A model generated the notes under the pieces. That model was not told the origin of the DNA and ran no database searches. It saw nothing but the letters and a program-made list of their open reading frames with translations. From positions 19,410 to 83,409 of the forward strand of contig JBMORG010000001.1 of the NCBI GenBank assembly GCA_049322355.1: 64,000 nucleotides of DNA. Direction: 5' to 3'. The stretch is from Thermodesulfobacteriota bacterium. GTDB lineage: Bacteria; Desulfobacterota; Desulfobaccia; Desulfobaccales; 0-14-0-80-60-11. The position numbers and the translations under genes are program-made. Below are positions 14,497 to 63,968 of this stretch, in pieces; within the stretch, counting starts at the first letter, position 1, and the number at the start of each line of letters is the position of its first letter.

Positions 14497-14507
14497 AAAG
14501 AATCCAA

Positions 14508-19830: not shown

Positions 19831-19846
19831 CGGCAGGGGAAGAAAG

Positions 19847-20740: not shown

Positions 20741-20798
20741 AGAAGCAAAGGGAAAAATGGAGAGGAGGGGCGGGGTCTGATGGCATAGGCGTTCAGCG

Positions 20799-24344: not shown

Positions 24345-24347
24345 TTT

Positions 24348-24773: not shown

Positions 24774-24777
24774 GAAG

Positions 24778-30826: not shown

Positions 30827-30838
30827 AACCTGTTTTAG

Positions 30839-31106: not shown

Positions 31107-31123
31107 TATATAGGAGGAAAATT

Positions 31124-32025: not shown

Positions 32026-32187
32026 CTCGTAGGAGCTTAAGGACTACATAACCAAAATATATCGATGGACCGGCTGCTCGTAAAAGTGCAATTAAGCCGG
32101 TCCATATCTTTTAAGACGTAAGCCGATTTATCCGGCTGCGTTTCCCTCCTGAGCTCCCATTTTTCGACCTGGCCATTCGGCTGGGTA

Positions 32188-33685: not shown

Positions 33686-33710
33686 TGCTACCCCAGTTGC
33701 TACCCCAGAA
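33686..33710. repeat. Left copy of the 25-bp direct repeat (tandem TGCTACCCCA motifs), candidate att or arm site
   Basis: tgctaccccaGttgctaccccagaa lies 18 bp upstream of the int2 start. Its partner at 63944-63968 differs at one base. Confidence 0.6.
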
Positions 33711-33727: not shown

Positions 33728-34948
33728 ATGAAAAAATTCACCGATAAGAAGATCCAAAATCTCAAGCCCAAAGCCCAGCGGTATGAAGAATGGGAAGGAA
33801 ATGGCTTTGGAGTCCGGGTTTCTCCCAAGGGGATAAAGAGCTTCGTTTTTATCTATAGATTTGAGGGGAAACCCCGGAGACTTACTCTGGGAAACTATCC
33901 AACCATGACTTTGGCAGATGCCCACGAGGCCCATGCCAAGGCCGTAAAGAAGTTGGAGAAGGGAATTGACCCAGGAGCCGAGACTGTGTCTGAACGTCAG
34001 GAGGAACGCAAAGCTCCCACTGTGGCACACTTGGTTGAGGAGTACATGGAGAAGTGGGCCAAAACAAGAAAACGTAGCTGGAAAGAAGATGACCGTATCC
34101 TAAAAAAGGATGTGCTTCCGACATGGGGCCACCGCAAAGCCAAAGAGATTAGCAGGCGCGATGTTATTCGGCTACTCGATGACATTTTTGACCGTGGTGC
34201 CGGCATCATGGCAAACCGAACTTTAGCGGTTGTTCGCAAGATGTTTAACTTCGCCGTAAGCCGAGATATTGTGTCTGTTTCCCCCTGCTTGGCTGTCCGC
34301 GCACCGGCACCTGAGCAACGTCGGGATCGGGTTTTGACCACAGATGAAATTCGAGCTCTTTGGCAAGGTTTGGCTGGCGCTAAGATGATGGCAGAGGGAA
34401 CCAAATTGGCCATAAAACTGCAATTGGTGACTGCACAAAGAAAGGCCGAAATCGTCAGTGCGGCCTGGGATGAAATTGATTTGACCGAAAAATGGTGGAC
34501 TATCCCGCCCGAGAAGGCCAAGAATAAGATGGCACATAGAGTTCCTCTATCTCCCCTGGCTTTGGAGCTTCTGGAGAGGGCTAAAGATTTTTCGGGCAAT
34601 TCATCATGGGTTTTTCCTTCACCCCGCACAGACCGGCATATTACCCCGGAAGCCGTTGATCATGCACTGCGGCGCCCTGGCCTGAATGCCTTAGGTTTCT
34701 CTTTTGTACCTCATGATTTGAGAAGAACTGCGGCTAGTCACATGACCGGGATGGGTATATCCCGGCTGGTAGTTAGCAAAATACTCAACCATATTGAGCG
34801 CGGTGTAACAGCCGTATACGACCGCCATAGTTATGATCGGGAAAAGCGTCAAGCCTTGGAATCCTGGGGCTCCAAGCTTAAGTCTATCATTGAAGATGCT
34901 GAGATAAAGGTGATCCCGATGGTTCGTGGCGGTCTTATTAAGAGCTGA
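33728..34948 (+). CDS. int: Tyrosine integrase, P4/CP4-57 type (element 2)
   Basis: The N-terminal arm-binding-type domain is KKIQNLKPKAQRYEEWEGNGFGVRVSPKGIKSFVFIYRFEGKPRRLTLGNYP. Catalytic TAQRKAEIV..., HDLRRTAASHM and LNHIERGVTAVYDRH are present. Confidence 0.9.
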   Translation: MKKFTDKKIQNLKPKAQRYEEWEGNGFGVRVSPKGIKSFVFIYRFEGKPRRLTLGNYPTMTLADAHEAHAKAVKKLEKGIDPGAETVSERQEERKAPTVAHLVEEYMEKWAKTRKRSWKEDDRILKKDVLPTWGHRKAKEISRRDVIRLLDDIFDRGAGIMANRTLAVVRKMFNFAVSRDIVSVSPCLAVRAPAPEQRRDRVLTTDEIRALWQGLAGAKMMAEGTKLAIKLQLVTAQRKAEIVSAAWDEIDLTEKWWTIPPEKAKNKMAHRVPLSPLALELLERAKDFSGNSSWVFPSPRTDRHITPEAVDHALRRPGLNALGFSFVPHDLRRTAASHMTGMGISRLVVSKILNHIERGVTAVYDRHSYDREKRQALESWGSKLKSIIEDAEIKVIPMVRGGLIKS

Positions 34949-39494: not shown

Positions 39495-39790
39495 GGTTTC
39501 AGAGGTTTCACCAAGGTTTCATATAAGGTTTCAGTGAATAACCAGTATTTATCTATATCTTATATATATTGAAACCTCTGAAACCTCTAAAACTATATAT
39601 CAATTTATAGGGGTGACATAGATCAATGACAACCGGATATGAAAAAATTCTTGACCTGATGCACAGGAAAAACAAAATTTCCGATTCGAGGTTTCAGAGG
39701 TTTCACGGCAACTTAATTAGTTGTTATAATTCAGAAAAGAATGAAACCTCTCCCGAAACCTCAGAGGTTTCACCCGAAGTTTCAGCGGCT
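39495..39790. repeat. Iteron-type replication origin candidate: 12 GGTTTCA/TGAAACC heptamers around an AT-rich core
   Basis: Direct copies lie at 39495, 39504, 39515 and 39527. The AT-rich tract accagtatttatctatatcttatatatat spans 39541-39569. Inverted copies lie at 39570 and 39579. Further copies lie at 39690, 39699, 39742, 39754 (degenerate), 39766 and 39778 (degenerate). The 13-mer TCAGAGGTTTCAC occurs three times. Confidence 0.7.
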
Positions 39791-40594
39791 GCGCCCCCCA
39801 TTTCCTCCTCTTTAATTCCCGAAATCCAAGCCTGGATCGCCAGCGTCGTCGAGCTCGCCCTAATCGGGAAGCTGACCGAGGCCGTAGCGCTCTCCGTAAA
39901 ACCGGCATTTCAGTCAATCTTGGGTGAAGGTCCGGTGTGGTTCTGCCCGGACCAGGTGACTGCCGACAGTAAGGCCCCTGACTTGGCTTTTACCGGCGAA
40001 GAACTAGCTGTGGTCATCCCGCTCTTACACCACGGGGATCGGCAACTTGCGGAGGCGGTGGTCATGGCAAAGAGAATCCTGGGAGGGACCATCATGGTCT
40101 CTTCTTTAGACCCGGAAGCAGCGCAGCCTTCCGATGACCTGGCGGTTTTGAGTTCGCAGGAAGAGGCAAAGGATGATGGCAGCACAGGCCAGCAAAAGGG
40201 CGGGGTGAGTCAGTCAACCCCAGAGGGACTCGCCAGCCCCGGCCGGCATCTGGTGAAAATTTCCAAGGTGCTCTGCTACCTGCATAATTTTCCTGAATAC
40301 ACAGGCCCCAGAGCCCGCCTAGAGATGGAAATTCTCGAAGGTCCCGATACCGGTAAAACCATCGTCGATAACATCTCTTTGCCGCACCCGCAGGAACCAC
40401 CGGGCAGGAAGAAGCGCCGGATCGAAATTGCTTACCGCCTTGGCCTGATCCCGCATGGGGCAAGGGGTACCGTCAAGATAGATTGGAATTGCTTGGAAGG
40501 CAAAATCGGTCTGGCGCATTACGGTTATAAAACCATTTCCGGGCGTGTATTCCCCACGGTGGAGTGGGAAAAATATGAACACAAGGAGAGTTGA
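39626..40594 (+). CDS. Hypothetical protein; the 5' ~160 nt overlaps iterons, so the true start may be downstream
   Basis: A long ORF with no recognisable motif. The N-terminal peptide (RFQRFHG, ETSPETSEVSPEVS) is dictated by the repeat DNA. Confidence 0.4.
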   Translation: MTTGYEKILDLMHRKNKISDSRFQRFHGNLISCYNSEKNETSPETSEVSPEVSAAAPPISSSLIPEIQAWIASVVELALIGKLTEAVALSVKPAFQSILGEGPVWFCPDQVTADSKAPDLAFTGEELAVVIPLLHHGDRQLAEAVVMAKRILGGTIMVSSLDPEAAQPSDDLAVLSSQEEAKDDGSTGQQKGGVSQSTPEGLASPGRHLVKISKVLCYLHNFPEYTGPRARLEMEILEGPDTGKTIVDNISLPHPQEPPGRKKRRIEIAYRLGLIPHGARGTVKIDWNCLEGKIGLAHYGYKTISGRVFPTVEWEKYEHKES

Positions 40595-42054: not shown

Positions 42055-43569
42055 ATGGATGTGACCCGTGCGAATGGTAGCAGCCTCACCCTGTCTCAAC
42101 TCGAATCGCACCTTTGGGAAGCAGCCAACATTCTGCGCGGACCGGTTGATGCCGCCGACTTCAAGACCTACGTTTTTCCCCTCCTCTTTTTTAAGCGCAT
42201 TTCTGACGTACACGATGAGGAGTACCAAGCGGCATTGTCTGAGTCGGGAGGGGACGAAGAGTATGCCAGGTTCCCTCAAAATTACCGCTTTCAAGTCCCA
42301 GAAGATTGTCATTGGCGCGATGTCCGGGCGGTGACGACCAATGTTGGTCAGGCCTTCCAAACTGCCATGCGTGGTATTGAAACCGCAAACCCGGAAACGC
42401 TTTATGCTATCTTCGGCGATGCCCAGTGGACGAACAAGGACCGTCTCTCTGACACGCTATTGCGTGACCTAATTGAGCATTTCTCCCGGATCAACTTGGG
42501 CAACGAAGCGGCGCAGGCCGACATCCTCGGACAGTCTTACGAATATCTCATAAAAAAGTTTGCTGATCTCACCAATAAGAAGGCAGGAGAGTTTTACACC
42601 CCGCGTTCGGTTGTCCGGCTAATGGTAAACATCCTTGATCCCCAAGAGAGTGAATCTATCTATGATCCCGCTTGTGGCACCGGAGGGATGCTATTAGAGG
42701 CGATACACCATGTTCGAGAGCACCACGGTGACGACCGTACTCTCTGGGGCAGGCTTTCGGGCCAGGAAAAGAATCTGACCACCGCCGCCATTGCCCGCAT
42801 GAATCTTTTTCTACATGGGGCTGCTGATTTCAATATCGTGCGCGGCGATACATTGCGAAATCCAGCTTTTTTTTCAGGCGATAATCTCGCCACTTTCGAC
42901 TGCGTCATCGCCAATCCGCCATTCTCCCTTGAAAAGTGGGGAGAGGAAGTCTGGGCCAGTGATCCCTTTGGTCGGAACTTCGCCGGCATGCCCCCGGCTA
43001 AGAGTGGCGACTTCGCCTGGGTCCAGCACATGATTAAATCCATGGCACCGAAAACTGGCCGCATGGCGGTAGTCCTGCCCCACGGGGTTCTGTTTCGCAT
43101 GGGGGCCGAAGGCAAGATTCGCCAAGAACTTCTCAACATGGACCTTCTCGAAGCCGTTATCGGCCTTGGACCAAATCTCTTTTATGGCACCGGCCTCGCA
43201 GCCTGCATTCTGGTCTTCCGCCGGCGTAAAGCACTGGAGCGCAAGAACAAGGTACATATCATTGACGCTTCTCGGGAGTTCAAGAAAGGCCGGGCCCAGA
43301 ACGAATTACTCCCGGAACACGTTGACCGCATTTATCGGTTGTACCAGGATTATGCCAATGTCGATGGGGTTGCCCGAGTGGTCAACCTGGAGGAGATCGC
43401 ATCAAACGATTACAACCTCAATATTCCCCGCTATGTTGAGCCCAAAGTGGAACACGAGGTGCTCACGGTGGAGGAGGCCAAGGGACATCTGCGGCTTAGC
43501 GCTGATGGGGCCTTTGAGGCAGAGGAAAAACTCATCAGCCTGCTCAAGAGCGAGGGGCTTCTGACTTAA
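42055..43569 (+). CDS. hsdM: Type I restriction-modification N6-adenine DNA methyltransferase subunit (free M subunit)
   Basis: HsdM N-terminal domain LESHLWEAANILRG. Motif I is YDPACGTGGML and motif IV is VIANPPFS. Confidence 0.9.
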   Translation: MDVTRANGSSLTLSQLESHLWEAANILRGPVDAADFKTYVFPLLFFKRISDVHDEEYQAALSESGGDEEYARFPQNYRFQVPEDCHWRDVRAVTTNVGQAFQTAMRGIETANPETLYAIFGDAQWTNKDRLSDTLLRDLIEHFSRINLGNEAAQADILGQSYEYLIKKFADLTNKKAGEFYTPRSVVRLMVNILDPQESESIYDPACGTGGMLLEAIHHVREHHGDDRTLWGRLSGQEKNLTTAAIARMNLFLHGAADFNIVRGDTLRNPAFFSGDNLATFDCVIANPPFSLEKWGEEVWASDPFGRNFAGMPPAKSGDFAWVQHMIKSMAPKTGRMAVVLPHGVLFRMGAEGKIRQELLNMDLLEAVIGLGPNLFYGTGLAACILVFRRRKALERKNKVHIIDASREFKKGRAQNELLPEHVDRIYRLYQDYANVDGVARVVNLEEIASNDYNLNIPRYVEPKVEHEVLTVEEAKGHLRLSADGAFEAEEKLISLLKSEGLLT

Positions 43570-43621: not shown

Positions 43622-45853
43622 ATGAGAGACGCACAAAAACCTGACCATATTAGCCTTAATACGCTTATTGGAAGACTCAAGGAAGGACGGTTCGTTATTC
43701 CAGACTTCCAGCGCGAATTTGAATGGCGCCCTTGGGACATCCGGGACTTGATGCGCTCCATTTTTCTCGACTATTACATCGGTAGTCTTCTCCTGTGGAA
43801 AGGCAAGAAAGAGAACTTCGCAGCTCTCTCGTGTCAAGCGATTCATGGGTTCGAGGGAGAAGAGAGACCCGAATCCATCGTGCTCGATGGCCAGCAGCGC
43901 CTCACTGCGATGTATTACGCCTTTCTCGCACCCGATGTTCCACTACCTCACCGGGCCAGTCGCGCCTTTTATTTCATCAATATTGAGAAATTCATGGCTG
44001 AGGTATACGACGAGGCCTTTGGCTACGATTGGCTTTCACGCCGATGGTTGAAAATCCTCGGTAACCGGGAGGCCCAATATGCGGACCATATCTTCCCTCT
44101 ATCGGTCGTAGGTGCAGGTGGGCGTGATCTGTGGAAATGGATAGATGGTTATGAGAAGTTTTGGCTTAGAAAAGCATCGGAAGCGGAATCCTCAGGCGAT
44201 ACAGCAAAATTCGTTGCCGCAACCCAGCATGCTGAAAATGCGATCGCCTTCGACGAACATCTCAGGGGGATCACTGAACAATACCAAATCTCTTACATAG
44301 AGCTGGATCAAGACCTCAGTATTGACAAGGTATGTGATATCTTCACGCAAATCAATAGCCGGGGTATTCGCCTCGACATTTTTGATCTCATGAATGCGCT
44401 ATTGAAGCCCAAAGACCTCAAACTCAAAAAAATGTGGCGTGACGCTGCTCCGCGTCTTGAGTTCGTCAATAGCGAGAAGATGAATGTCTATATCCTCCAA
44501 GTCATGTCCATCCTGAGACAAAATTACTGCTCGCCCAAGTACCTTTATTTTCTTCTCCCTGGTCAAGAGAAAACAGTCCGCAATCCGGATGGCACCCGCC
44601 AAAAGGAGATTCTGATCGCAGACATTGCCGAATTCGAGAGGCTTTGGAACCAAGCTGTCTCTTCCCTGGAAGCTGCCATCTATGTGTTGCGACAGCCCCA
44701 AGAATTTGGTGCCCTCTCCTCTGATTATTTGCCATATGTCTCCATCCTGCCAATTTTCGCCGCTCTTCAGGCTCACGTTAAAACGATTCCGGCAATGCGT
44801 CGCCTCGATGCCCAACGCAAGATTCGCCACTGGTATTGGGCCTCCGTCTTCAATAACCGCTATTCAGGCGCTGTAGAATCCACCAGCGCCCGTGATTTTC
44901 TTGACCTCAAGGCATGGATTGATGATGACGCCGCCGAACCGCCCTTAGTCTTTGAGTTTGCCAACACTTTCCGCAACCTGGATCTTCGCAAGGAAACCAA
45001 GCGCGGAACTTCGGTTTATAACGGAATATTTAATCTCTTGGTTCTTCAGGGCGCTCGGGATTGGATGAGCGGCACAGTCCCACAACATAACAATCTGGAT
45101 GATCACCATATTGTTCCCGCGTCCTGGGGCGCCAGAAATATCGAAGGTGGATTGGGTCACACAATCCTGAACCGGACGCCTTTGACGGCCGAAACCAACC
45201 GGCAGGTGATCCGCGACCGCCTGCCCAACGCCTACCTGCCGGAACTCATTGGGGCAAGCGGAGAAGGGACCGTTCGTGCCATCTTGGAGTCACACTTTAT
45301 TTCGCCTGCCGCATTCGCTATCCTACTGCGAAATCCCTTTGGTCCCGAAGATTTTCAATCCTTTATCTCTGAGCGCCAGAAGACGATCCTTGAAGCCATT
45401 GAAAACCTGCTTATAAAGGAACGGCTGGACTTACCACCGCAGCTTCGAGAGCTCGATGCGGCGATTGAGCAAATAGAGTTATCTATCCGTGAAGCAATCC
45501 AATCAACTCTCAACGGCGATATATCTCTTATCCCTTCCCATGTGCTCGTGAAAGTTGAAGAACGTATTTCACGGGCGACCAAAAAGACCGCGGCCCTCAA
45601 TGGGGATTATTATCAAACCTTGACCGGCAAGTTGGAATACTTTGATTTGCGAGAACTCCAAGACACCATCACCAACAGTTCTCTCTGGCCACATTTCCAA
45701 CCGCAATTCGTAAATAAAGAAACCTTTGTTAAAAAGTTCGACCAGCTCGGTGAACTGCGGAATGGCATTCGACACAGCCGGACGGTGGACGACATTACCC
45801 GGAAAGAGGGTGAAGCCTCAATACTCTGGTTTAAGCAAGTGCTTGGTAAATGA
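43622..45853 (+). CDS. DUF262 (ParB-like NTPase/nuclease) plus DUF1524 (His-Me/HNH-like) plus C-terminal HEPN-like domain protein
   Basis: DUF262 motifs FVIPDFQREFEW and LDGQQRLTAMY. DUF1524-like DDHHIVP...NRTPLTAETNR. The C-terminal ELRNGIRHSR is an Rx4H HEPN-type motif. The stop overlaps the next start (ATGA at 45850-45853). Confidence 0.75.
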   Translation: MRDAQKPDHISLNTLIGRLKEGRFVIPDFQREFEWRPWDIRDLMRSIFLDYYIGSLLLWKGKKENFAALSCQAIHGFEGEERPESIVLDGQQRLTAMYYAFLAPDVPLPHRASRAFYFINIEKFMAEVYDEAFGYDWLSRRWLKILGNREAQYADHIFPLSVVGAGGRDLWKWIDGYEKFWLRKASEAESSGDTAKFVAATQHAENAIAFDEHLRGITEQYQISYIELDQDLSIDKVCDIFTQINSRGIRLDIFDLMNALLKPKDLKLKKMWRDAAPRLEFVNSEKMNVYILQVMSILRQNYCSPKYLYFLLPGQEKTVRNPDGTRQKEILIADIAEFERLWNQAVSSLEAAIYVLRQPQEFGALSSDYLPYVSILPIFAALQAHVKTIPAMRRLDAQRKIRHWYWASVFNNRYSGAVESTSARDFLDLKAWIDDDAAEPPLVFEFANTFRNLDLRKETKRGTSVYNGIFNLLVLQGARDWMSGTVPQHNNLDDHHIVPASWGARNIEGGLGHTILNRTPLTAETNRQVIRDRLPNAYLPELIGASGEGTVRAILESHFISPAAFAILLRNPFGPEDFQSFISERQKTILEAIENLLIKERLDLPPQLRELDAAIEQIELSIREAIQSTLNGDISLIPSHVLVKVEERISRATKKTAALNGDYYQTLTGKLEYFDLRELQDTITNSSLWPHFQPQFVNKETFVKKFDQLGELRNGIRHSRTVDDITRKEGEASILWFKQVLGK

Positions 45854-51569: not shown

Positions 51570-54500
51570 GTGGCAAGTTCAATGACAGATGAGGAAAAGA
51601 GCCTATCCCTCCTGCGATTTCTGAAGGATGTAGTTTCCATCAGAAGGCAACGTCTGCCGCGTTATACCGACAACGATAAGCTTATATGGTTTACCAAGCT
51701 CCCTCGAGAACGCCAGGAATGCCGTTCCCCCCTTCTTTTTTGGGAATCAGAGGAGACGCCTGATTTTTGGTTAGAAGTTAAGAAGACCCGCCCGCCATTA
51801 CGAGCGTCCCTCCCCGGAGAACTTACTGATTGGATTGACTCCAAAGAATTGGAAGATGTAAACAAAGAACCTGAAATCCCCTCCTCCATTACTGTCTTTG
51901 TCGAACAGAACGTGCCGGACCCGGAAGCACCGCCAGGGCAACAACGTATTATTACGGAAAAAGTTCCAGTCCAGCACCACCTTGAGGATTACCCTAAGCT
52001 GCAAGAAGCATGGCTCAATTATCTTGTTAATGAATGGGAGCCATGGGCTGAGAAGAAACGTCGTTGGCAAGAAGTTCAAACTATTTATGAAGACGTTGAC
52101 TTCATGCGGCGGCGGCTGGAAGAATCTGAAGAGCGTTTTGAACTGTTTTTAGGCCTTGGATTACTTGTTTGGAAAGATTCTACGGAGAAACTAGTCCGAC
52201 GTCATCTTCTCACTGGACTTGCTGAAATAGACTTTGATGCTGCCCGTGGGATTCTCCGAGTTGTTCCGGCCGCTACTTTTGAGACATTCCGCATTGAAAT
52301 GGACATGCTTGAACTCCAGGATCGCCCACGGATTGACGAACAACAAATCCAAAAAAAACTTGAAGATTTAGATATCAATGCCTGGGATACATGCAAGGTA
52401 GGGGAAATCCTGCGTGAAATTGCCAATAGGGCTAAAGGAGACTCCCAGGTAGATGAGGATTCTTTTGAAATCCCGCGGCCTGGAGATAACACTCTTAGGG
52501 TTTCTTTTGCGCCAGCTTTTGTTTTACGTGAACGTCGTTTCACCGCACCGGAAGAGGTAATCGGGCGACTTTTGGATCGAATAAGCGACTCACCTAACGA
52601 AACCACTAAGCCCTGGGACCAATTTTTAGCCGAAGGAGTTTCAAATGATCAAGAGGTTAATAATGTTTTTGGAGAGAACACTATCACTTACCCCCAATCG
52701 GTTGAACGCATATTCTTTCCTCGGCCCACAAATGAGGAGCAGCGTCAAATAATTCATCGCCTTCAAGCCTCGTCATCCGTAGTGGTGAAAGGTCCACCAG
52801 GTACCGGGAAAAGCAATACCATAGCCAACCTTATAAGCCATCTTTTGGCTACTGGGGAACGGGTCCTGGTGACTGCCCAGGCACCTAAGGCGCTCGATGT
52901 CCTTCGGAACATGGTTCCCCGAGGTCTTCAGAACCTGTGTCTTACTGCATTGAGTTCCTCCAGAGAGGATCAACGCCTCTTGGAGGAAGGGGTTCGGGGT
53001 ATTGTTGGTCGAAAAAATGATTGGGAAACGGAAAAGGAGAACTGGCCTCACGAGATAACAGAACGAGATCTTCGATTAAACCATCTGGAAAAAGAACTGG
53101 CAAACACCGAGCGTCAATTGAGGGAATACCGTGAGGCTGAAACTTTCCCTCATATCTTGCCAGGTGGTTACGAGGGGACCGCAGCCCAAATCGCCAGACA
53201 ACTGGAGCAAGAGCGTGAAACCCTGGGGTGGTTCCCCGAAGTTGTTCAGAGCCAAAATAATTTTCCCTTATCTGAAGATGAATTACTACTCTTGGCTGAA
53301 ATGCATAGAAAATTAACTCCTGAGAACGAACAAGAGCTGGATTTGGAAACCGGAGATTTTGACCTCCTCAGCCCTTCGGATTTTTCACACGTTTTGACTG
53401 GCTTAGAGGAGGCAATTGAAAAGGCCGACACTGCCTCACAAAGTGCTGATCCCGACAAATTGGAAATTTTGAAAGATTCCGCTACCGAGACCATCAACAA
53501 GACAGCAATCACTCTTAAAACAATAGAAGAAAATTGGCTACGCTCTACCCGTGCCTTGGGGGAGATGGCTCATTCAGTATATGAAGATTTATTGGTGACC
53601 CATCGAAGCCATTGGAATCTTCTTTATCAACACACTAAGACAATCCTTGAGCAAATCGAAGTCAATCAGGAAAGACTTGCCGGGGCTGAAGTACATATCC
53701 CCCCAGAGTTGAGCCTTCCTCAGCTTTTAAGCGATACAGAGCGTCGCTTAGATCACCTTGTTAAGGGGGGTCGGATAGGCATATGGTTTTTTCAACCAAA
53801 AATCATCAGGGAGACCAATTATCTCGAAGAACAATGCCGAGTGAATGGTTGTCGACCGCAAGAGCAAGAGCATCTCGAAAGGATAATAGCCTGTCTACGT
53901 TTGCAAGCTAACATACAAGAATTCCAGGCACAATGGCCCCAACCCATCGATATTATGAATGGGGATAATATCCGGGCTGCCATGGCCGCCCGAGAGTTGG
54001 TGACCGAATTGGAACACATCCTGTCTCTGTTTGATGATTTCGGTAATGACGTCGTTCCATGTATACCGGTATCGTTTAGAGCCACTCTGGGTAGTCAAGC
54101 GCAACGGTTAATTTGGCTTAAAGCCATTGAAGCAGAACTTGCCCGCCGTGATCTTGAAACCCATCAGGAACCACTGTCTGATTGCCACCAGCAAATCCAG
54201 AGTTGCCTCAATAGTGGTAGGGCCCATCCATCCTTGTCCAGACTTGCTGAAGCCATATATGCTCACGACCGTGCAGCTTGGCATGGAGCTTGGGAACAGC
54301 GAGAAATTGTTAAGGAAAACCGCCTGCGCCTGAAAAAGTATCGTGAACTGATTAGTCGGCTCAGACCCCTTAGCCCCGGTTTGCCAGAGTTGTTACAGAC
54401 CCATCAAGGCGATCAAGAATGGACACCTCGGCTTTTGGCATTGGAGAAAGCCTGGCATTGGGCTTTAGCCTGCAACTGGATTGCGGCAACTTCAGACCCA

Positions 54501-57263
54501 CATCGATATGAGGAGCTGATGCTGCATAGCCACCGTCTTCAGGAGAAGATTGAGAGTCAAACTGAAGAAACAGCTATCTTGCGGGCCTGGAACACCTTCT
54601 TTTCCCGCTTAGACTCCCGTACCACTCAGAACCTTGGAGCCTGGACTAAAGCAATAGCCCGTATTGGCAAAGGCACGGGAAAATACGCGTACCGCCGTCG
54701 CCGGGAGGCACGTAAGTACCTGATGGAATGTATCCCTAAAATGCCCGCCTGGGTTATGCCCCTCCACAAACTGTGGGAAACTGTGGAGGCCGTCCCGGGG
54801 CTTTTCGACACCATCATTATAGATGAAGCTTCCCAGGCAGGGATAGAGTCTTTGGTTCTTCTATTGCTCGGCAAACGAATCATTGTGGTTGGCGATGATA
54901 AACAGAATAGCCCCGAGGCGGTAGGAGTACTCGAAGACGACATCGCCAGACTGGTTAGGGAACATCTGGAAGAATTCCACTTCCGGTACGAGTATCGCCC
55001 GGATACCAGTCTTTTTGATCATGCCGAACGCGCCTTCGGAAACCTTATTTCCCTTCGGGAACATTTCCGGTGCGTACCAGAAATTATCCGATTCAGCAAT
55101 GACTTGTGTTATAGAGAAGCGCCCCTGATTCCCTTGCGCCAAGCACCGCCTGAGCGCCTTTCTCCCTTGCGCCATACTTTTGTGCCCAATGGTACCTGTC
55201 AAGGGGACGGTCAGAGAATTCGCAATCTCCCCGAAGCTGAGGAACTCGTCCTAACCATCAAACAATGCCTGGAAGACGAAGCCTATGAAGGGAAATCCAT
55301 GGGCGTGATCGTATTGCAAGGGAAAGCACAGGGGGAACTTATTGAAAGGATACTGGCTTTGGAACTCGATCCTCAGGTCATCGCTGAACGGAGACTTCGT
55401 TGCGGCGTCCCAGCCACCTTTCAGGGGGATCAGCGTGATGTTATCTTCCTTTCTATGGTAATCGCTCCTGATAAGCACATCACCGCCCAAACTACGCTTC
55501 CTGCCCAACGTCGGTACAACGTTGCCATGAGTCGCGCCCGTGACCAGGTATGGTTGTTTCACAGTATGCAACCTCATGACCTTAGCAAAGACTGCCTACG
55601 GCGTCGCTTGCTGTTCTTCTTCCTGCGTCCATCAATTTTATCTCTGGAAACTGAGGAACTGGAGCGTCTGGAAAAGGAGGCTCTAAGGACCCCAAGGCGG
55701 ATAGGTAGCCAACCAACCCCTTATGAAAGTTGGTTTGAAGTCGATGTTGCTCTTGAGTTGTTGCGCCGCAATTATCGTGTTCACCCCCAATATGAAGTGG
55801 CCGGGAAAAGGATTGATCTGGTAATCGAAGGGACTGAATCCCGTTTGGCAGTGGAATGTGATGGCGATGCATGGCACGGACCGGAAGAATATGACCGGGA
55901 CATGGCACGGCAACGACAGCTTGAGCGCGCCGGCTGGACATTTTTCCGCGTTAGAGAGTCGGAATTTTATATCGATCGTAACCGGACTACCCAAGACATC
56001 ACTCGGGTATGCAATGAATTGGGGATTATCCCGGAGAGGCAGGAGTCAGAGCTTGAGACCGATATGGCGGTCTCGGGACAAGAAATAGAAACAGATGCTG
56101 AAGCCTTTCAAGCCTCTGAGCCTATAGAAAATAATGGCCAGCCGAGCCTTGATTTTCCAGAGTCAGAAGAAGGCCCCTTTACTGGATACTCTGGGCTTAA
56201 TTTTTCCGATCCCAGGGAGGCCTCCCCGGTAGATCTGAGGGAGACGCTGATGAGAATCATTAGCCAGGATGGCCCTCTTTCTCGGGAATCTATTTATCGG
56301 TTGTACGCCGAAGGGTGTCCCCATCTGCACCGTATCACCAAGACTATTCGAGAAAAAATCAACCGCACCCTTGGAGCCATGTTGCGGACAGGGGAAATTG
56401 TGCACGAAGATGAACTGGGTAAAGGTCGACCTCAGGGGATGATTGTCCGGCGGACAGGAACTCCGTTAGTACGATTAAGGCCTGCAGGGCGCCGCGACTT
56501 AGAGGAGATACCTCCTTCAGAAATTTTGCTGCTTTTGGAGAGACTCAAAATAGATGCTTCTACACGTGATTTCTTCGGAGAGGATTTGATTTTCCGCAAG
56601 ATTTTGGATCATTATGGGTTTCAGAAACTGACAAGATCAAGACGAAAACATCTCCAAGCTGTATTATTTTCCTCACGACAGAAGAACTTATTTCAACCAT
56701 TAGTGTCCGATAGAACAGTTATGGACAAAGAGGAGATTAGCAAGTTACATCAGGACAGGCATTTACGGTATGGATCCAATTTTTTTGAAGAGCATCAGGC
56801 ACGAGATGGAATAGAGGATTCAGAAAATGCAAAAGGCTGGAACGAATCTTCATTTTTTCAAGATATGAGGACTAAAGGTTTTGAAGCGGTTTTAGATGTA
56901 GCTTTCAATATGTTGGAATGGATTAAATCAAAGAAAGTTGATCTGGAATATGGCAAGGGCGCGGTTACTGGTTCTTTTTATCCGGTGATTGATTCCAAAG
57001 GCAAAAGATATAGACTTTTTACCGTTTATTCTGACGGACGAATGGAAATTTGGTTCGCTTATATAAAACAGATCCCACCCTTCGATCAAGAACAAAACCT
57101 TTCAGAATTACTTTTCCGTTTGAATCAAATTGCAGGGGTTTCTCTTGCAAAAGAATCCGTAAATCGCTATCCCGGCATTAAATTATCTGTATTTGCAGAA
57201 GGTCAGGCTTTAAAGCAGTTTTTTGCCATATTTGATTGGGTATTCCAAGAAATCAATGTGTAG
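51570..57263 (+). CDS. Giant SF1 (Upf1-like AAA_11/AAA_12) helicase with a DUF4011-like N-terminus, a DUF559/Vsr-like endonuclease domain and additional C-terminal modules (Hhe-like); an alternative start lies at 51582
   Basis: DUF4011-like ELFLGLGLLVWKD...LLTGLAEIDFD. Walker A VVKGPPGTGKSNT, motif II IIIDEASQ, FRCVPEIIRFSN, ATFQGDQRDVIFLSMV and RRYNVAMSRARDQVWLF are present. The nuclease core is RIDLVIEG...LAVECDGDAWHG...RQRQLERAGWTFFRV. Confidence 0.8.
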   Translation: MASSMTDEEKSLSLLRFLKDVVSIRRQRLPRYTDNDKLIWFTKLPRERQECRSPLLFWESEETPDFWLEVKKTRPPLRASLPGELTDWIDSKELEDVNKEPEIPSSITVFVEQNVPDPEAPPGQQRIITEKVPVQHHLEDYPKLQEAWLNYLVNEWEPWAEKKRRWQEVQTIYEDVDFMRRRLEESEERFELFLGLGLLVWKDSTEKLVRRHLLTGLAEIDFDAARGILRVVPAATFETFRIEMDMLELQDRPRIDEQQIQKKLEDLDINAWDTCKVGEILREIANRAKGDSQVDEDSFEIPRPGDNTLRVSFAPAFVLRERRFTAPEEVIGRLLDRISDSPNETTKPWDQFLAEGVSNDQEVNNVFGENTITYPQSVERIFFPRPTNEEQRQIIHRLQASSSVVVKGPPGTGKSNTIANLISHLLATGERVLVTAQAPKALDVLRNMVPRGLQNLCLTALSSSREDQRLLEEGVRGIVGRKNDWETEKENWPHEITERDLRLNHLEKELANTERQLREYREAETFPHILPGGYEGTAAQIARQLEQERETLGWFPEVVQSQNNFPLSEDELLLLAEMHRKLTPENEQELDLETGDFDLLSPSDFSHVLTGLEEAIEKADTASQSADPDKLEILKDSATETINKTAITLKTIEENWLRSTRALGEMAHSVYEDLLVTHRSHWNLLYQHTKTILEQIEVNQERLAGAEVHIPPELSLPQLLSDTERRLDHLVKGGRIGIWFFQPKIIRETNYLEEQCRVNGCRPQEQEHLERIIACLRLQANIQEFQAQWPQPIDIMNGDNIRAAMAARELVTELEHILSLFDDFGNDVVPCIPVSFRATLGSQAQRLIWLKAIEAELARRDLETHQEPLSDCHQQIQSCLNSGRAHPSLSRLAEAIYAHDRAAWHGAWEQREIVKENRLRLKKYRELISRLRPLSPGLPELLQTHQGDQEWTPRLLALEKAWHWALACNWIAATSDPHRYEELMLHSHRLQEKIESQTEETAILRAWNTFFSRLDSRTTQNLGAWTKAIARIGKGTGKYAYRRRREARKYLMECIPKMPAWVMPLHKLWETVEAVPGLFDTIIIDEASQAGIESLVLLLLGKRIIVVGDDKQNSPEAVGVLEDDIARLVREHLEEFHFRYEYRPDTSLFDHAERAFGNLISLREHFRCVPEIIRFSNDLCYREAPLIPLRQAPPERLSPLRHTFVPNGTCQGDGQRIRNLPEAEELVLTIKQCLEDEAYEGKSMGVIVLQGKAQGELIERILALELDPQVIAERRLRCGVPATFQGDQRDVIFLSMVIAPDKHITAQTTLPAQRRYNVAMSRARDQVWLFHSMQPHDLSKDCLRRRLLFFFLRPSILSLETEELERLEKEALRTPRRIGSQPTPYESWFEVDVALELLRRNYRVHPQYEVAGKRIDLVIEGTESRLAVECDGDAWHGPEEYDRDMARQRQLERAGWTFFRVRESEFYIDRNRTTQDITRVCNELGIIPERQESELETDMAVSGQEIETDAEAFQASEPIENNGQPSLDFPESEEGPFTGYSGLNFSDPREASPVDLRETLMRIISQDGPLSRESIYRLYAEGCPHLHRITKTIREKINRTLGAMLRTGEIVHEDELGKGRPQGMIVRRTGTPLVRLRPAGRRDLEEIPPSEILLLLERLKIDASTRDFFGEDLIFRKILDHYGFQKLTRSRRKHLQAVLFSSRQKNLFQPLVSDRTVMDKEEISKLHQDRHLRYGSNFFEEHQARDGIEDSENAKGWNESSFFQDMRTKGFEAVLDVAFNMLEWIKSKKVDLEYGKGAVTGSFYPVIDSKGKRYRLFTVYSDGRMEIWFAYIKQIPPFDQEQNLSELLFRLNQIAGVSLAKESVNRYPGIKLSVFAEGQALKQFFAIFDWVFQEINV

Positions 57264-57397
57264 ATCTTACCCAAGCGAGTGGTCGGTCAACCCCAAGCGA
57301 CTGCACGTGAGGTCGTTAGGGATCACATTGCGAGCCGCACTATGAAATTGTGAAAAAACTGACCAGGGTTGGTTCTTGGCATGTCTTTTCCACTCCG

Positions 57398-60300
57398 TCA
57401 AGCTCCGGCAGGCGGGAATTTCCATTGCCGCGAGTCTGTGGACTGGTTTTGGGTATTAGTTTTTCGCTGCAAGAATACATCAATGTCTTTAATCTCAAAA
57501 AAGGCTATCGCTGCTTGGTCTTGCCCATGTAAATGAATAATTTGTCTATCGAAAGGTTTTTTATAAGGTGCGTAGGCATTACTACCGCCATACTTGCCGT
57601 TATTTGCAACAATGACCATCTGAAACATATGATAGTGCAAGGCCATCGCCATATTGTCAAAAGTGTTTACATCTTTATTCATCGCTGGAACAGCGAAAAT
57701 ATCCGAGCGATTCCGTAAATCAGCAGCGAGTGTGATATCCGTAGCGTCGTAACAGATGGAAGCTGTGAGCCATAATGGCCGGGTTTGATCTCGACTACAC
57801 CATTCATAACCTACTAACCACTGGCATGGTCTAAAACTTTGGATGACTTGTCCTCGTCCCGATCTATTCGACTCCACCTCCTCTTGGGCGAGGTGGTACT
57901 TGCCTTGTTCGCGAATATAAATCCGTAAACCATGTGTTTCGGACCATGCCGGAATTACCCAAAGTGCCGAGTTTACTAAAGGTGGCTGACCCGCCAAGAG
58001 TTCTTTATAGGTTAATCCCACTGTAATTATTGCCTTATGTGCACGAGCGAAAGGTACAAGATGCGTTGGGATGTCTTTTGGATGGACGGAAAGCTCTGGT
58101 AAAATTAACCAATCAAGGCGCCTTCCAAGCGTCTTGTGTGTCTCTCGGAGTGTCAACAATCTCTCGATTGCAACCAACGTTGCCGATAGATGATTGCGGT
58201 GGCGTCTGCGGATATTCGGGCCTGGTAGAGTGAGGTCTGCCGGGGGTTTGAATTCATCATCGGTTGGAATTACGGTTTGGGCAACGCATACCCTCAAAGG
58301 CCGGTCCACATCAGTCTTGTCGAGTCGGGGTGCTTCAAGATTGAGCATCAATACATGGCTTGATCTTCCCACGATTATCTTTTTAAAAAATTTATCAATG
58401 AGGTCTCGTGTTCTCTTAATTCCATCGCGAACATACTCAACGATCTCGGATACCTCGGAGTTTCGACAACCAGGCCAATGGAGCAAGGCGAATAGAAGTT
58501 GTTCAGTCCAGTACGAGATTGGTAACCAGTAATCACCGAAAGCGGAATGCTCGTTAAGCAGACCGTAGAGTCTTTGATACCAATGGCTGCAAGGAGCCCG
58601 ATATATTGCCATTTCTTCTTTCCAATGAGGCAACCGTACCACCAGCGTGAAGTCTTGCCGAGCCGTCAGAATGAACCTCATAAGATACCCGAGTTGTAAA
58701 CGCCAGCGTTCTTCAGGCGGGCACCACGACGGTGGTCGGTACATCGATCCCTTGGGATCGACTCGACTTGGAACTATCTCAATTTCATCGACTGTGGACA
58801 ACGGGTCGTTTAAATCTGAGAGCCTGACATAAATGTCTGATGGAGTGACAACCTCGTTATCGTTGAATTCGGGCCATTTTTCTAAAAGCTTTATTGCGAA
58901 TGAGATAATCGCAACTTCATTTCGGAGTTGGTTCTTTGGACCTTTTTGAAGTACCAAATCCGCGAGTGTTGACCACTGATCCTCCTTAACTTTTTTTTCT
59001 AAACATAAGTCACTGCGAACTCTCGGAGAGACCTCTACGGACAGCTCAGGTTTTGATTCAAGGATTTCAATTACAAAAGAGGGGTCTCGTTCTGCAATTT
59101 GGTTCAAAAGATGAGGGGTTATATTTTGTTCAATTAGTTTGATCGCTGCCTTTTGGTCAAGAAATGATCGTCGCGACAAAGTAGACAAGGTGGCAAAATC
59201 AGCATTGTTTAAGCCATCACTTTCACCACTTAAGAAATTAATTAATTCAATGTAATGTTTGGTCTCAGAATCATGTTCCGCGCGAAGGATTGATACTTGC
59301 GTGGGATTGTTTGCAGCGAGGAACAAAAGAACTTGCTGCCTAAGATACCACGGCAGAGTAATGGCAGGCAGTGAAAGGAGTCGCTTAGCTTCTTCCAAAA
59401 GAACTGAACGATAATCCGCAAGTTTTATTCCATTTGGAAGAGATGAATTGTCATCAACAAATCCTGTTTCGGTGGCGCCTGCACGGAAAATCTCGGATAA
59501 ACAGTACCAAGCTACGCGGCAGAGAGCCTTGCGGGGCGCACCAGTTTCGGTAAAAGGCCTCAACAAGTTCAAAACATTTTCTAGAACATCCTTAGCAGGC
59601 CAAAGGTCCAGCCCGATGCGAAGAAGACGCACATTAGACGGATCTTCAACCCATGTCTCTATGAGTCCAAGGGCGAATGCTTTTACTTCTTCATCAAGAT
59701 CAGCTTGGGTGCGAAGCGACCCGAAATTATCTGTCCGACATGCATCAGGCTCTTTTTCGAGTTGTTCTTTTTTGGGGCCACAGTCCTCTAAAAGTGGTCT
59801 AAGTGAACGATAAGTACTTCTGAATCGTCCTGCTGCGAAACGTGCAACTGTCTCATCTCGAACGTCCGGAATTGGAGAGAAAGCCCATCCATTTTCCTTC
59901 AAACGTTCCTCAGAATAGCGCCGCTGGGACCGTATCAACCCCTGGATAGAATATAGGATATCTTGCCCAGCGACGGCATCGAATCCCCCGGAGATCGCGC
60001 CCTGTATGCGCTTCATCTTTTTGCTTTGCATCAAAATTGGAGGCTCGTCAACACCAAATGCAGCAGCTTTGGTCTTATCCTTGGATACTTTTAACCCACC
60101 CGCATGGATGTCCAGTAATTCCTGAAGCCAACCGACAATATTCTTCTCAAGGTCAGGGAAGTGAATGGCTTGATCAACCGTCAATACGATTCGAAGATCA
60201 TCAACATAACGACAAACATCTATTACTCTGATGCCAGTTTCGATCTCTTGCGTTATAAATTTCCTCAACCCTTGATCGAAGTCAAGGAGGGAGATGTTCG

Positions 60301-61171
60301 CGAAAAATCCCGCAGAAACAAGACCTTGTGGCAGTGCAACTTTCGAGAAATCCCCAAGGTCCTCTGCAGATGCATACCTCATTACTTCATTCTTGTCTTT
60401 CGCATGCCAGGTCCAAGACAAAAGCCTTTTGACAAAATCATAAAATCCTGGATCGTCATCTGTTGTTTTTAAGGCTTCAATTTTCTCATTCAGCAGGGCT
60501 GGCCGAACCCTGTCGTAGAACTGGCTTAAATCCGAATACACAATCGTGACTCGAGTTCCTGGGGAATTGTTGACAGCCTCAGCCCGACCAACAAATTCCG
60601 GTCTCTCAAGGAATTTTTGGTAATCCTGAAAATAGGCGCGGTAGAGCTTTCCCGAACCCCATCGGTGATGTAATGTTCCGTCACAGCTTTTGTCACAAAA
60701 AAGGCGGTTTCCATAGGAAATAACCTTGTATCTATCGGTGGCTTCTTTAATTGAGGAGCTTGGATCTCCCTGGATTGTTTCTGTCCGATCAGCAAGGCAC
60801 AACATAACAGCAGTAGCGGCAACTTGATCCTTAAGGCTCACATGGGCCAACGGACGGAGTTTTACGGAGTTTTCTCTCTTCTTTGCTGGCTTCGGCTTCC
60901 ATTCGTTTGTTTGAGGATTAACAAGCCACTGTTGGCTCTTTGGGGCAGGCACAAGCCGGATTGGGTCATTTAACCATTGTTCGGGAGTCATTAGCTCTTC
61001 GGCCAAATCGGCAAGGAATTGCCGGAGGTTAACCGTAGCTCGATCTAACTCGAGGGTGTCAGAGTACCAGTTATGGTTACGGATATATGAGGAGGTCTTC
61101 TTCCATGCCTGTATGAGGACCTCTTCCCGGCACAGGTTCTCAAGGCGAGGAAGGAGGAATTCATCATCCAT
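57398..61171 (-). CDS. Reverse transcriptase fused to a C-terminal nitrilase (CN-hydrolase) domain; DRT type 1 / UG1-like defence RT
   Basis: RT motifs are SDLSQFYDRV (A), LPQGLVSAGFFANI (B) and RYVDDLRIV (C; the YVDD codons at 60197-60208 were verified). The nitrilase triad context is LRVCVAQT..., WLILPELSVHP and SICYDATD (Cys codon at 57752-57754). Confidence 0.8.
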   Translation of the reverse strand: MDDEFLLPRLENLCREEVLIQAWKKTSSYIRNHNWYSDTLELDRATVNLRQFLADLAEELMTPEQWLNDPIRLVPAPKSQQWLVNPQTNEWKPKPAKKRENSVKLRPLAHVSLKDQVAATAVMLCLADRTETIQGDPSSSIKEATDRYKVISYGNRLFCDKSCDGTLHHRWGSGKLYRAYFQDYQKFLERPEFVGRAEAVNNSPGTRVTIVYSDLSQFYDRVRPALLNEKIEALKTTDDDPGFYDFVKRLLSWTWHAKDKNEVMRYASAEDLGDFSKVALPQGLVSAGFFANISLLDFDQGLRKFITQEIETGIRVIDVCRYVDDLRIVLTVDQAIHFPDLEKNIVGWLQELLDIHAGGLKVSKDKTKAAAFGVDEPPILMQSKKMKRIQGAISGGFDAVAGQDILYSIQGLIRSQRRYSEERLKENGWAFSPIPDVRDETVARFAAGRFRSTYRSLRPLLEDCGPKKEQLEKEPDACRTDNFGSLRTQADLDEEVKAFALGLIETWVEDPSNVRLLRIGLDLWPAKDVLENVLNLLRPFTETGAPRKALCRVAWYCLSEIFRAGATETGFVDDNSSLPNGIKLADYRSVLLEEAKRLLSLPAITLPWYLRQQVLLFLAANNPTQVSILRAEHDSETKHYIELINFLSGESDGLNNADFATLSTLSRRSFLDQKAAIKLIEQNITPHLLNQIAERDPSFVIEILESKPELSVEVSPRVRSDLCLEKKVKEDQWSTLADLVLQKGPKNQLRNEVAIISFAIKLLEKWPEFNDNEVVTPSDIYVRLSDLNDPLSTVDEIEIVPSRVDPKGSMYRPPSWCPPEERWRLQLGYLMRFILTARQDFTLVVRLPHWKEEMAIYRAPCSHWYQRLYGLLNEHSAFGDYWLPISYWTEQLLFALLHWPGCRNSEVSEIVEYVRDGIKRTRDLIDKFFKKIIVGRSSHVLMLNLEAPRLDKTDVDRPLRVCVAQTVIPTDDEFKPPADLTLPGPNIRRRHRNHLSATLVAIERLLTLRETHKTLGRRLDWLILPELSVHPKDIPTHLVPFARAHKAIITVGLTYKELLAGQPPLVNSALWVIPAWSETHGLRIYIREQGKYHLAQEEVESNRSGRGQVIQSFRPCQWLVGYEWCSRDQTRPLWLTASICYDATDITLAADLRNRSDIFAVPAMNKDVNTFDNMAMALHYHMFQMVIVANNGKYGGSNAYAPYKKPFDRQIIHLHGQDQAAIAFFEIKDIDVFLQRKTNTQNQSTDSRQWKFPPAGA

Positions 61172-63943: not shown

Positions 63944-63968
63944 TGCTACCCCAATTGCTACCCCAGAA
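63944..63968. repeat. Right copy of the 25-bp direct repeat (tandem TGCTACCCCA motifs), candidate att or arm site
   Basis: tgctaccccaAttgctaccccagaa. Extra related motifs lie at 63860-63881 (gataccccaag ctgctacccca). Confidence 0.6.

Follow-up and report, generated by a model that had tools for sequence, protein, structure and literature searches.

An unnamed family of predicted single-polypeptide helicase-nucleases, sister to Hhe and ProA, on a candidate integrative element of a Thermodesulfobacteriota bacterium

What is the very large gene that directly follows hsdR, the restriction gene of a Type I restriction-modification (R-M) system, in a 64,000-nucleotide (nt) stretch of a Thermodesulfobacteriota bacterium (assembly GCA_049322355.1, contig JBMORG010000001.1, positions 19,410 to 83,409; hereafter the window), and does it belong to the defence system Hhe, as an original prediction made from the letters of this DNA had proposed? 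That prediction described a DUF4011-like N-terminus, a Upf1-like superfamily 1 (SF1) helicase and a Vsr-like endonuclease encoded by one gene. The general class proved to be right, the product being a single-gene fusion of a Upf1-like SF1 helicase with a Vsr-like nuclease, but the family name Hhe was wrong. Judged from sequence comparisons, the protein falls in a clade without a name of its own, a sister to Hhe and ProA and a distant sister of PDC-S37 too, this clade being defined by an N-terminal domain and an insertion of ~600-625 amino acids (aa) of its own. With moderate confidence, we consider that the gene would encode a stand-alone, single-polypeptide defence enzyme directed against phages or mobile DNA and carried as cargo of a ~30-kb integrative element.

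The gene and its helicase, insertion and nuclease

The reading frame was confirmed to be intact, since it runs uninterrupted from 51570 to 57263 on the forward (+) strand and counts 1897 codons from its GTG. An ATG at 51582, 12 bases after the GTG, has the purine-rich AGAGGTGG in front of it and would give a product of 1893 aa. This ATG is likely to be the start of the gene, with the GTG at 51570 as an alternative, and residues are numbered from it throughout. From end to end, the 1893-aa product matches P0001, a deposited protein from a 379-kb contig of a metagenome-assembled genome (MAG), at 100% identity; P0001 is annotated as 'AAA domain-containing protein' of a Thermodesulfobacteriota bacterium. 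No match to the gene came from a megablast search of every complete E. coli genome and of the PLSDB plasmids. The gene and its parts are as follows.

51582..57263, +, full gene, 1893 aa plus stop (1897 aa if read from the GTG at 51570), identical to P0001
51582..52589, +, N-terminal domain, aa 1-336, alpha/beta, family-specific and conserved in the 21-sequence alignment
52719..52961, +, first part of helicase domain 1A with Walker A and motif Ia (Pfam AAA_11, AAA_30, AAA_19; PDB relatives Upf1/NAM7, IGHMBP2, DNA2, RecD)
52962..54761, +, insertion within domain 1A between motif Ia and motif II, clade-specific, without Pfam match
54762..55616, +, remainder of domain 1A and domain 2A with motifs II-VI (second AAA_11 stretch, AAA_12; Upf1/Sen1)
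55719..56021, +, Vsr-like nuclease (MTES_1575/DUF559; Pfam PF18741), which aligns to the Hhe nuclease
56187..56681, +, DUF3320-like region closing the family core, about aa 1536-1700 (Pfam below cutoff; hhalign)
56838..57260, +, C-terminal domain specific to this protein, aa 1753-1893, absent in the other 20 aligned members

All of the SF1 helicase motifs that had been quoted were found in the translation. The Walker A motif GPPGTGKS corresponds to aa 404-411 and to nt 52791-52814, exactly where it had been placed, motif II (IIIDEASQ) is found at aa 1078-1085 with its DEASQ at nt 54822-54836, and VVGDDKQNSP, FRCVPEII, QGDQRDVIF and MSRARD can all be read as well. Pfam assigns AAA_11 in two stretches, the first at aa 383-447, and AAA_12 at aa 1141-1326. 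With a family profile, the sequence relatives of the motor in the PDB, down to 2.5e-14, are Upf1/NAM7, Sen1, IGHMBP2, DNA2, Aquarius and RecD. Because these are the nearest solved sequences, the motor is assigned to the Upf1-like SF1B class, and the presence of motifs I, Ia and II-VI together with this similarity argues for such membership. Translocation or unwinding would then proceed 5'->3', a polarity taken from class membership only.

The large insertion that had been predicted within domain 1A was borne out. Indeed, ~670 aa separate Walker A from motif II; the insertion is therefore real and roughly as large as proposed, its own length being ~600-650 aa once motif Ia and the helicase 1A flanks are subtracted. 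No Pfam model matches it.

The nuclease core LAVECDGDAWHG...ERAGWTFFRV is likewise present in the translation, and the restriction-endonuclease fold suggested for it is supported by Pfam MTES_1575 (PF18741), which matches aa 1385-1474 at 3.2e-29 with 101.3 bits compared to a gathering score of 38.2; the Pfam DUF559 match is weak. This score above gathering and the conserved acidic residues point to a member of the Vsr-like restriction endonucleases (MTES_1575/DUF559). In an alignment of 21 family members, where residues 1 to ~1700 are conserved at 49-78% identity, K410 of Walker A, D1081 and E1082 of motif II and the residues of motifs III-VI are invariant, as are D1412, E1425 and H1432 of the nuclease, and D1427 is conserved in at least 90%. 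Hence, both enzymatic activities are under purifying selection, with D1412, E1425 and D1427 as the proposed catalytic residues of the nuclease.

Relationship to Hhe and to other helicase-nucleases

The assignment to Hhe did not survive comparison with curated models. The NCBIfam Hhe model (NF042953) gives 132.8 bits against a cutoff of 2000 and matches aa 1075-1508 only (9e-39). The best curated NCBIfam model is ProA (NF058533, 1903 positions), at 228.4 bits against a cutoff of 1500 (1e-67). In PADLOC, where the comparison was with individual models, the best model is not Hhe either: it is PDC-S37 (2e-65), which covers the C-terminal half only, aligning aa 1075-1703 with positions 938-1538 of 1550. 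It is followed by MkoC, Hhe (PDLC02194, 6e-29, aa 1074-1483 only) and MkoA, the MkoA and MkoC matches being at 1e-28 to 1e-30.

As a direct comparison, we used an hhe annotated by the Prokaryotic Genome Annotation Pipeline (PGAP) on a Klebsiella IncFIB plasmid (locus L007). In its 1911-aa product, DUF4011 spans 30-308 (1.6e-37) and MTES_1575 spans 1683-1780, with Walker A at 447 and motif II at 1387 between the two. In BLASTP, this Hhe and our protein align over the C-terminal half (27% identity, 4e-25) and around Walker A only, and a profile-versus-sequence hhalign aligns 1055-1484 only (3.5e-26). The layouts are thus parallel but the alignment is restricted to the C-terminal half; the N-terminal 1070 residues are therefore not Hhe-like. 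What the protein shares with Hhe is a single large chain in which a very large insertion interrupts domain 1A of a Upf1-like SF1 helicase, with a Vsr-like nuclease (MTES_1575) and then a short C-terminal region placed behind the helicase; both are found on plasmids or islands beside other defence genes. Unlike Hhe, the protein has no Pfam DUF4011, its score on the curated hidden Markov model (HMM) is 15-fold under the cutoff, and its insertion is unrelated, with ~600-670 aa compared to ~880-940 aa in Hhe; against the insertions of Hhe/DUF3320 proteins hhalign finds no similarity (E 0.17-0.34, 0.17 for Hhe).

To call Hhe a mere candidate, as had been done, understates what is known of it. Hhe has reportedly been validated by experiment, in the work of Gao et al. 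in 2020, and is said to protect as a single gene. A PhageMaP preprint reports phage triggers and counters for Hhe (10.1101/2024.10.10.617714): seven T7 class II DNA-metabolism genes behave as potential Hhe triggers, and Bas63 g40 is toxic solely with hhe present.

The likeness to ProA is seen in the family member P0069, whose residues 376-1690 align unbroken, from Walker A to the C-terminus, with model positions 639-1902. Since the alignment forms one stretch, helicase, insertion, nuclease and C-terminal region are collinear between the two. Unlike in ProA, the N-terminal ~640 model positions stay unmatched, and P0069 scores 218 bits against the cutoff of 1500. PDC-S37, itself a single-gene candidate only, is similar over helicase domain 2A, the nuclease and the C-terminal region; ~40% of its model is covered and its N-terminal half therefore differs. 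A literature search gave nothing usable on ProA, PDC-S37 or PLuB as defence systems. Membership in Mokosh is contradicted by the extent of the MkoA and MkoC matches, which cover the helicase 2A part only, and by the lack of a phospholipase D (PLD) domain in Pfam.

Like Nhi, the protein unites a nuclease and an SF1 helicase within one chain, and by analogy Nhi may serve as a working model for the mechanism. Nhi has a nuclease-first domain order, another nuclease type and a much smaller size. No Nhi model is present among the PADLOC matches at E<=0.01. In staphylococci this single-gene nuclease-helicase nicks and unwinds phage DNA and depends on the phage single-stranded DNA-binding protein (SSB) (PMC12904381). 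Proteins of the MTES_1575 type are similar in combining an SF1 helicase, a novel Vsr-family restriction endonuclease and DUF3320-like winged helix-turn-helix (wHTH) modules (Anantharaman et al. 2013, PMC3710099); MTES_1575 itself has transglutaminase and HEPN domains, none of which Pfam finds in our protein.

The N-terminal domain was examined further, given that it had been described as DUF4011-like, and this description is unsupported: Pfam DUF4011 (PF13195) has no hit at E<=10, either with the whole protein or with aa 1-380, and no other Pfam model matches the domain. Many charged residues within aa 1-336 are invariant in the 21-sequence alignment. The AlphaFold2 (AF2) model of the domain reaches a predicted local distance difference test (pLDDT) score of 78 and a predicted template modelling (pTM) score of 0.70, and Foldseek of this model against the PDB returned nothing (best E 0.27, TM <=0.11). 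Compared by hhalign to an Hhe/DUF4011/DUF3320 profile built from six proteins (L007 and L096-L100), it matches around one motif only, at E 0.002-0.003 and a probability of 10-13%. The matched helix-hairpin motif, LEE..-L.L..G.L.W...PL, surrounds the DUF4011 core LxLxxGxLxW; the match is collinear and falls at the same place with two independent query profiles, and a very remote kinship to DUF4011 is possible. The idea of a second nuclease in this domain was rejected: D, E, H and R residues are invariant but there is no match to a restriction-endonuclease fold.

Of the winged-helix-like segments announced for the C-terminus, the DUF3320-like character is found again, at a weak level and with a Pfam score below the cutoff (PF11784, E 0.0044, 17.4 bits, cutoff 25). 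In hhalign, aa 1552-1695 match the C-termini of DUF3320 proteins at E 2e-5 (77%) with one sequence and at 2.8e-4 (41%) with a small alignment, and the ProA profile aligns across the same region in P0069. DUF3320 consists of two wHTH domains that follow the MTES_1575 Vsr endonuclease (Anantharaman et al., PMC3710099). The region is thus probably made of two winged-helix domains.

Relatives were also found on plasmids. A tblastn search of PLSDB gave 532 plasmids with relatives, all below 60% identity, and five of them were retrieved (L011-L015, from Variovorax, a Fusobacteria bacterium, Sphingobium, Streptomyces and Acinetobacter). They are annotated 'AAA domain-containing' or 'DUF3320 domain-containing' and are otherwise unnamed. 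In Pfam all five have AAA_11, AAA_12 and MTES_1575 and none has DUF4011, and their scores resemble those of our protein (ProA 207-278 bits, Hhe 135-161 bits). Furthermore, local hhalign shows the N-terminal domain to be homologous to theirs (E 8.6e-21, 354 columns), and the same holds for the insertion (E 6.8e-39, 583 columns), which has a uniform length of 623-628 aa in the plasmid proteins. They differ by an identity of 28-38%, by a length of ~1525-1576 aa in most, and by 424-507 aa after motif II compared to ~620 in the core of the family studied here. Their genes adjoin BREX brxL, AbiEii, a GIY-YIG nuclease and a BPTD_3080 restriction enzyme. Taken as a whole, the architecture class is familiar, the family is not captured by curated resources and its N-terminal domain is without structural precedent in the PDB.

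The extra C-terminal domain

The protein differs from its closest relatives by what follows the DUF3320-like region. The other 20 aligned members end at ~1700-1760, the closest two (78% and 73% identity) with '...RQKDLFQQ*' and '...RQRRLFH*', and exactly at their stop position the chain runs on with RQKNLFQPLVSDRTVMDKEE..., through a linker of ~50 aa into a 141-aa domain (aa 1753-1893). Of the 21 family members, the present protein alone is matched by an HMM built on these residues, and the extension is known from a single MAG contig. An assembly artefact was considered and rejected, the frame being open and the same 1893-aa product having been deposited independently. Other members carry other C-terminal additions, namely ankyrin repeats (P0048 and P0058), a Trans_reg_C wHTH (P0103) and an unassigned 120-aa tail (P0112). 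Given these differing additions, the C-terminus of the family looks like a variable accessory slot.

The domain recurs outside the family. Five small proteins (P0121-P0125) end in copies with 60-66% identity and have NucS_C-like nucleases or a MerR-like helix-turn-helix (HTH) domain at their N-termini. A HMMER search of 1.84 billion cluster representatives found the domain in 1298 of them at E<=1e-3 and in 495 at E<=1e-10, most being proteins of 120-500 aa that bear it at the C-terminus. Pfam matched the domain itself in 0 of 64 sampled members. Its partners in the sample include protein kinase, CBS, DUF4268, DUF4145, GmrSD_N with GmrSD_C, and the CAP12/Pycsar TIR domain, and furthermore HNH_2, HEPN_Swt1, Hypoth_Ymh, DUF5655 and DUF7662. 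The AF2 model is of high quality (pLDDT 97, pTM 0.90); Foldseek of it gave no convincing match in the PDB (best E 0.1) and an unconvincing best match in BFVD, Bacillus phage G gp200 (E 6e-3, TM 0.39). A 'double-wing' DNA-binding fold was rejected as insufficiently matched, with T4 MotA (6k4y_M) at a TMq of 0.46 and a probability of 0.57, and DUF419/DR2400 and PUR-alpha weak. We take it to be a promiscuous, so far unannotated module of conflict systems, which in the present protein would most plausibly have been added for sensing or binding.

Distribution, neighbourhoods and predicted function

In a word-indexed homologue search, 1263 proteins reached E<=1e-10. Nearly all of the best 120 among them are 1700-1760 aa long, with 50-78% identity over ~90% of the query, and their MAGs of origin bear the labels Aminicenantes, Acidobacteria, Zixibacteria, Gemmatimonadota and others. 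About 20 full-length copies of the family were found in GTDB species representatives, distributed over Nitrospinota, Planctomycetota, Chloroflexi, Spirochaetales, Acidobacteriota, Clostridia, Nitrospira, Chitinophagaceae, Desulfobaccales and the isolate Verrucomicrobium sp. 3C. Such a patchy distribution across phyla is consistent with horizontal transfer. On homologues, the Joint Genome Institute (JGI) annotation reads 'very-short-patch-repair endonuclease'.

The flanks of 21 family loci were clustered (208 open reading frames (ORFs) within 6 kb). No flanking gene is conserved, the largest shared cluster within these 6 kb being present at 3 of the 21 loci. A housekeeping family with conserved synteny, which had been named beforehand as the outcome that would refute a defence role, is thus not what was seen. 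An hsdR-like gene is present at 3/21 loci, on the upstream side in the window and on the downstream side in L021 and L032; hsdM/S genes are likewise present at 3/21 and Type ISP genes at 2/21. At 7 of the 10 Pfam-annotated family loci, R-M, toxin-antitoxin or other defence genes are present. The following neighbours were recorded.

L003: Type ISP R-M, integrase
L004: Type ISP R-M, SLFN_AlbA_2 ATPase, HSP70-TPR, UvrD
L005: PIN-FitA, transposase
L006: WYL-WCX regulator immediately upstream, 8805-9800
L101: Type III R-M operon with an embedded MNT-HepT pair and GmrSD, 13265-21160, the homologue lying directly beside the operon
L102: Mokosh-like helicase-PLD protein, integrase, HicB
L104: BrnT
L001: transposase and HTH, otherwise little
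L103: HTH_17 excisionase-like gene, otherwise little

The Mokosh-like protein of L102 (4753-7887), directly beside the homologue, has 1044 aa with AAA_11/AAA_12, PLDc_2 and a Zn-ribbon and resembles Mokosh type II. The WYL-WCX regulator of L006 is of a type that controls other defence systems. Without a conserved partner and with a variable neighbourhood of defence and mobile-element genes, the family behaves, as far as its loci indicate, as a stand-alone one. The pattern is that of a stand-alone gene gathering in defence islands, and not that of an obligate R-M accessory or of a housekeeping gene.

How such an enzyme might work can be outlined by analogy with Hhe, whose potential triggers include T7 DNA-metabolism genes, and with Nhi, whose activity depends on the phage SSB. 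At rest, the nuclease would be kept inactive by the N-terminal domain and/or the insertion. Upon infection, the protein would engage a DNA structure or nucleoprotein peculiar to the phage, for example an intermediate of replication or recombination, or single-stranded DNA with phage proteins on it, the contact being made via the N-terminal domain, the insertion and the DUF3320-like wHTH modules. The SF1B motor would then move 5'->3' along one strand, driven by ATP, and the Vsr-like nuclease would nick or cut the unwound DNA; the invader would thereby be destroyed, or the infection aborted if host DNA were also cut.

Several points weigh against this reading as a stand-alone defence enzyme. The defence role rests on domain content and neighbourhood, and 3 of the 10 Pfam-annotated contexts hold no defence gene beyond a transposase, HTH or excisionase-like gene (L001, L103) or a WYL regulator (L006). 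On the curated Hhe and ProA models the scores fall far short of the cutoffs; any function borrowed from these two is therefore an extrapolation. Upf1-like helicases act on RNA too, and PADLOC reports similarity to the Mokosh helicases. For the insertion and for the two terminal domains the proposed roles are pure conjecture, and neither terminal domain has a fold match. Finally, no sigma-70-like promoter or intrinsic terminator pattern was found between hsdR and the gene, a scan of this kind being uninformative in a genome of the Thermodesulfobacteriota; the gene may therefore be coupled in transcription to the R-M operon.

Other explanations have to be weighed against the same evidence. That the protein would be a true Hhe orthologue, with DUF4011, helicase and Vsr nuclease and acting exactly like Hhe, is very improbable. 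The order of the parts is indeed that of the PGAP-annotated Hhe, with Walker A near residue 400-450, the C-terminal halves are similar (BLASTP 4e-25, hhalign 3.5e-26) and two profiles give a collinear weak match at the DUF4011 core motif (E 0.002-0.003). However, 132.8 bits in NCBIfam instead of 2000, a PADLOC Hhe match confined to 1074-1483, 27% identity where alignable, no Pfam DUF4011 at E<=10 and an insertion that is unrelated (E 0.17) and ~250 aa shorter all stand against it. An accessory or cooperating part of the adjacent Type I R-M system, for example a processing nuclease-helicase dependent on hsdR/hsdM, is unlikely. It would fit with the position of the gene, on the same strand 93-105 bp after hsdR across a gap free of terminator- or promoter-like patterns, and with the occurrence of Type I R-M at 3/21 loci, of Type ISP at 2/21 and of a Type III system downstream in L101. 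Yet at least 15 of the 21 loci have no R-M gene within 6 kb, the order relative to Type I genes varies (hsdR upstream in the window, downstream in L021 and L032), other members stand alone or beside unrelated systems, and the local Type I system is already complete with hsdM, a fused hsdS and hsdR. Hence, where the original prediction had spoken of an independent or cooperating module, independence agrees with the loci and cooperation with hsdR is unsupported as a rule, Type I R-M being present at only 3/21 loci and in varying positions.

A target of RNA instead of DNA, as has been proposed for Mokosh and as is found in eukaryotic Upf1-type helicases, phage transcripts then being degraded or stalled, has a small likelihood as well. 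The closest solved relatives of the motor include the RNA helicases Upf1, Sen1, IGHMBP2 and Aquarius, and the MkoA/MkoC matches in PADLOC reach 1e-28 to 1e-30; but the effector has the Vsr/DUF559-type restriction-endonuclease fold of a DNA nuclease family (PMC3710099), the DNA-acting DNA2, RecD and Nhi share the motor class and the PLD nuclease of Mokosh is absent. Quite improbable, too, is a housekeeping or element-maintenance enzyme without defence role, acting in Dna2-like end processing, Vsr-type mismatch repair or island replication. Helicase-nuclease fusions such as DNA2 are among the sequence matches, the JGI label on homologues names very-short-patch repair, the island has its own primase and a few loci lack defence neighbours. 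Against this, the family is patchy across phyla with unconserved synteny, the gene recurs in R-M, toxin-antitoxin and defence islands and beside integrases, and its best profile matches are all to anti-phage models.

At least one further large family thus has a layout like that of Hhe, in which an N-terminal domain and a split SF1B motor are followed by a Vsr nuclease and a DUF3320-like wHTH tail. Since the curated models of NCBIfam, Pfam and PADLOC leave this family unnamed, defence censuses probably undercount the class. Single-protein helicase-nucleases of the Hhe type are common in defence islands. Families that are alike in motor and nuclease and unlike in N-terminal domain and insertion could, when compared, guide part swaps for mapping trigger specificity. 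The C-terminal domain, for its part, marks an unannotated superfamily that travels with diverse immune effectors, and is a candidate portable sensor. A bolder proposition, which we hold to be doubtful, is that the family forms a distinct unnamed single-protein immune system with a new kind of infection sensor made of the N-terminal domain and the insertion, and that the C-terminal domain represents a widespread sensor/adaptor superfamily. If true, this domain would be a portable phage-sensing or ligand-binding module that has repeatedly been recombined with TIR, HEPN, GmrSD, HNH and NucS nucleases and with kinases. A phenotype would have to be demonstrated before the practical value became more than modest.

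The candidate integrative element and its neighbouring genes

As had been noted, the gene is the next one after hsdR on the same strand, with a gap of 93 bp to the GTG (105 bp to the ATG). Its proposed location on a mobile island is supported by a P4-type integrase and by 25-nt direct repeats at 33686 and 63944 that resemble attachment (att) sites. The features of the island are the following.

33686..33710, left copy of the 25-nt direct repeat TGCTACCCCAGTTGCTACCCCAGAA, candidate attL, immediately before the P4-type integrase gene
33728-34948, P4-type tyrosine integrase
36972-39494, Toprim primase
42055-43569, +, hsdM, 504 aa, stand-alone
43622-45853, +, DUF262/GmrSD_N protein, 743 aa
45850-48504, +, hsdM-hsdS fusion, 884 aa
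48501-51476, +, hsdR, the upstream neighbour (Pfam HSDR_N, SWI2_SNF2, ResIII; PADLOC REase_I 1e-134)
57398-61171, -, DRT1a reverse transcriptase-nitrilase (PADLOC Drt1a 1288 bits, 5-1256 of 1257 aa)
63944..63968, right copy of the 25-nt repeat, candidate attR, 24/25 bases identical to the left copy

The flanks of the two repeat copies are unrelated, and 0 of 100 shuffles gave two matches. The repeats are thus a candidate attL/attR signature of an integrative element of ~30.3 kb with defence cargo, whose contents comprise the Toprim primase, the Type I R-M system, the helicase-nuclease and DRT1a. The right copy lies ~30 nt from the end of the window, and the junction beyond it is outside. No tRNA gene was found in the window.

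Within the element, the arrangement of the Type I R-M system is unusual, with two hsdM-type genes and the DUF262/GmrSD_N gene between them, and with hsdR overlapping the fusion gene by 4 nt. The DUF262/GmrSD_N protein may be a separate Type IV-like module. DRT1a is convergent with the helicase-nuclease gene, their stop codons being ~135 bp apart, and two terminator-like hairpins on the + strand follow the stop of the latter, one at 57363-57379 and one, barely within the DRT1a ORF, at 57428-57441.

To the left of the candidate attL are a DDE transposase (26280-27398, -), a DUF927/Cch-HTH primase-helicase-like gene (28121-30826) and a tyrosine integrase (32255-33454). These genes, from 26280 to 33454, may represent another mobile element that integrated in tandem at this site. 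An IrrE/Peptidase_M78 gene (23562-24344, -) reaches into a stretch of low GC content at 24000-26000 (0.37). Low GC is also seen at 6-8 kb (0.35) and 62-64 kb (0.38), for a background of ~0.50, which suggests further foreign DNA. Two repeats of other kinds were observed: a perfect 20-nt tandem duplication (CATCGCGGCCAGGGGAAAGC twice) at 23008-23047, and a perfect 18-nt direct repeat, AGGTTTCAGAGGTTTCAC, at 39494-39511 and 39689-39706, the copies being 195 bp apart and around the start of an ORF at 39626-40594. Lastly, a DUF262 protein stands immediately before hhe in the Klebsiella locus L007 (1-1674), and a DUF262/GmrSD_N gene stands ~5.7 kb upstream of the helicase-nuclease gene in the window; DUF262 proteins may recurrently co-occur with this class of helicase-nucleases.

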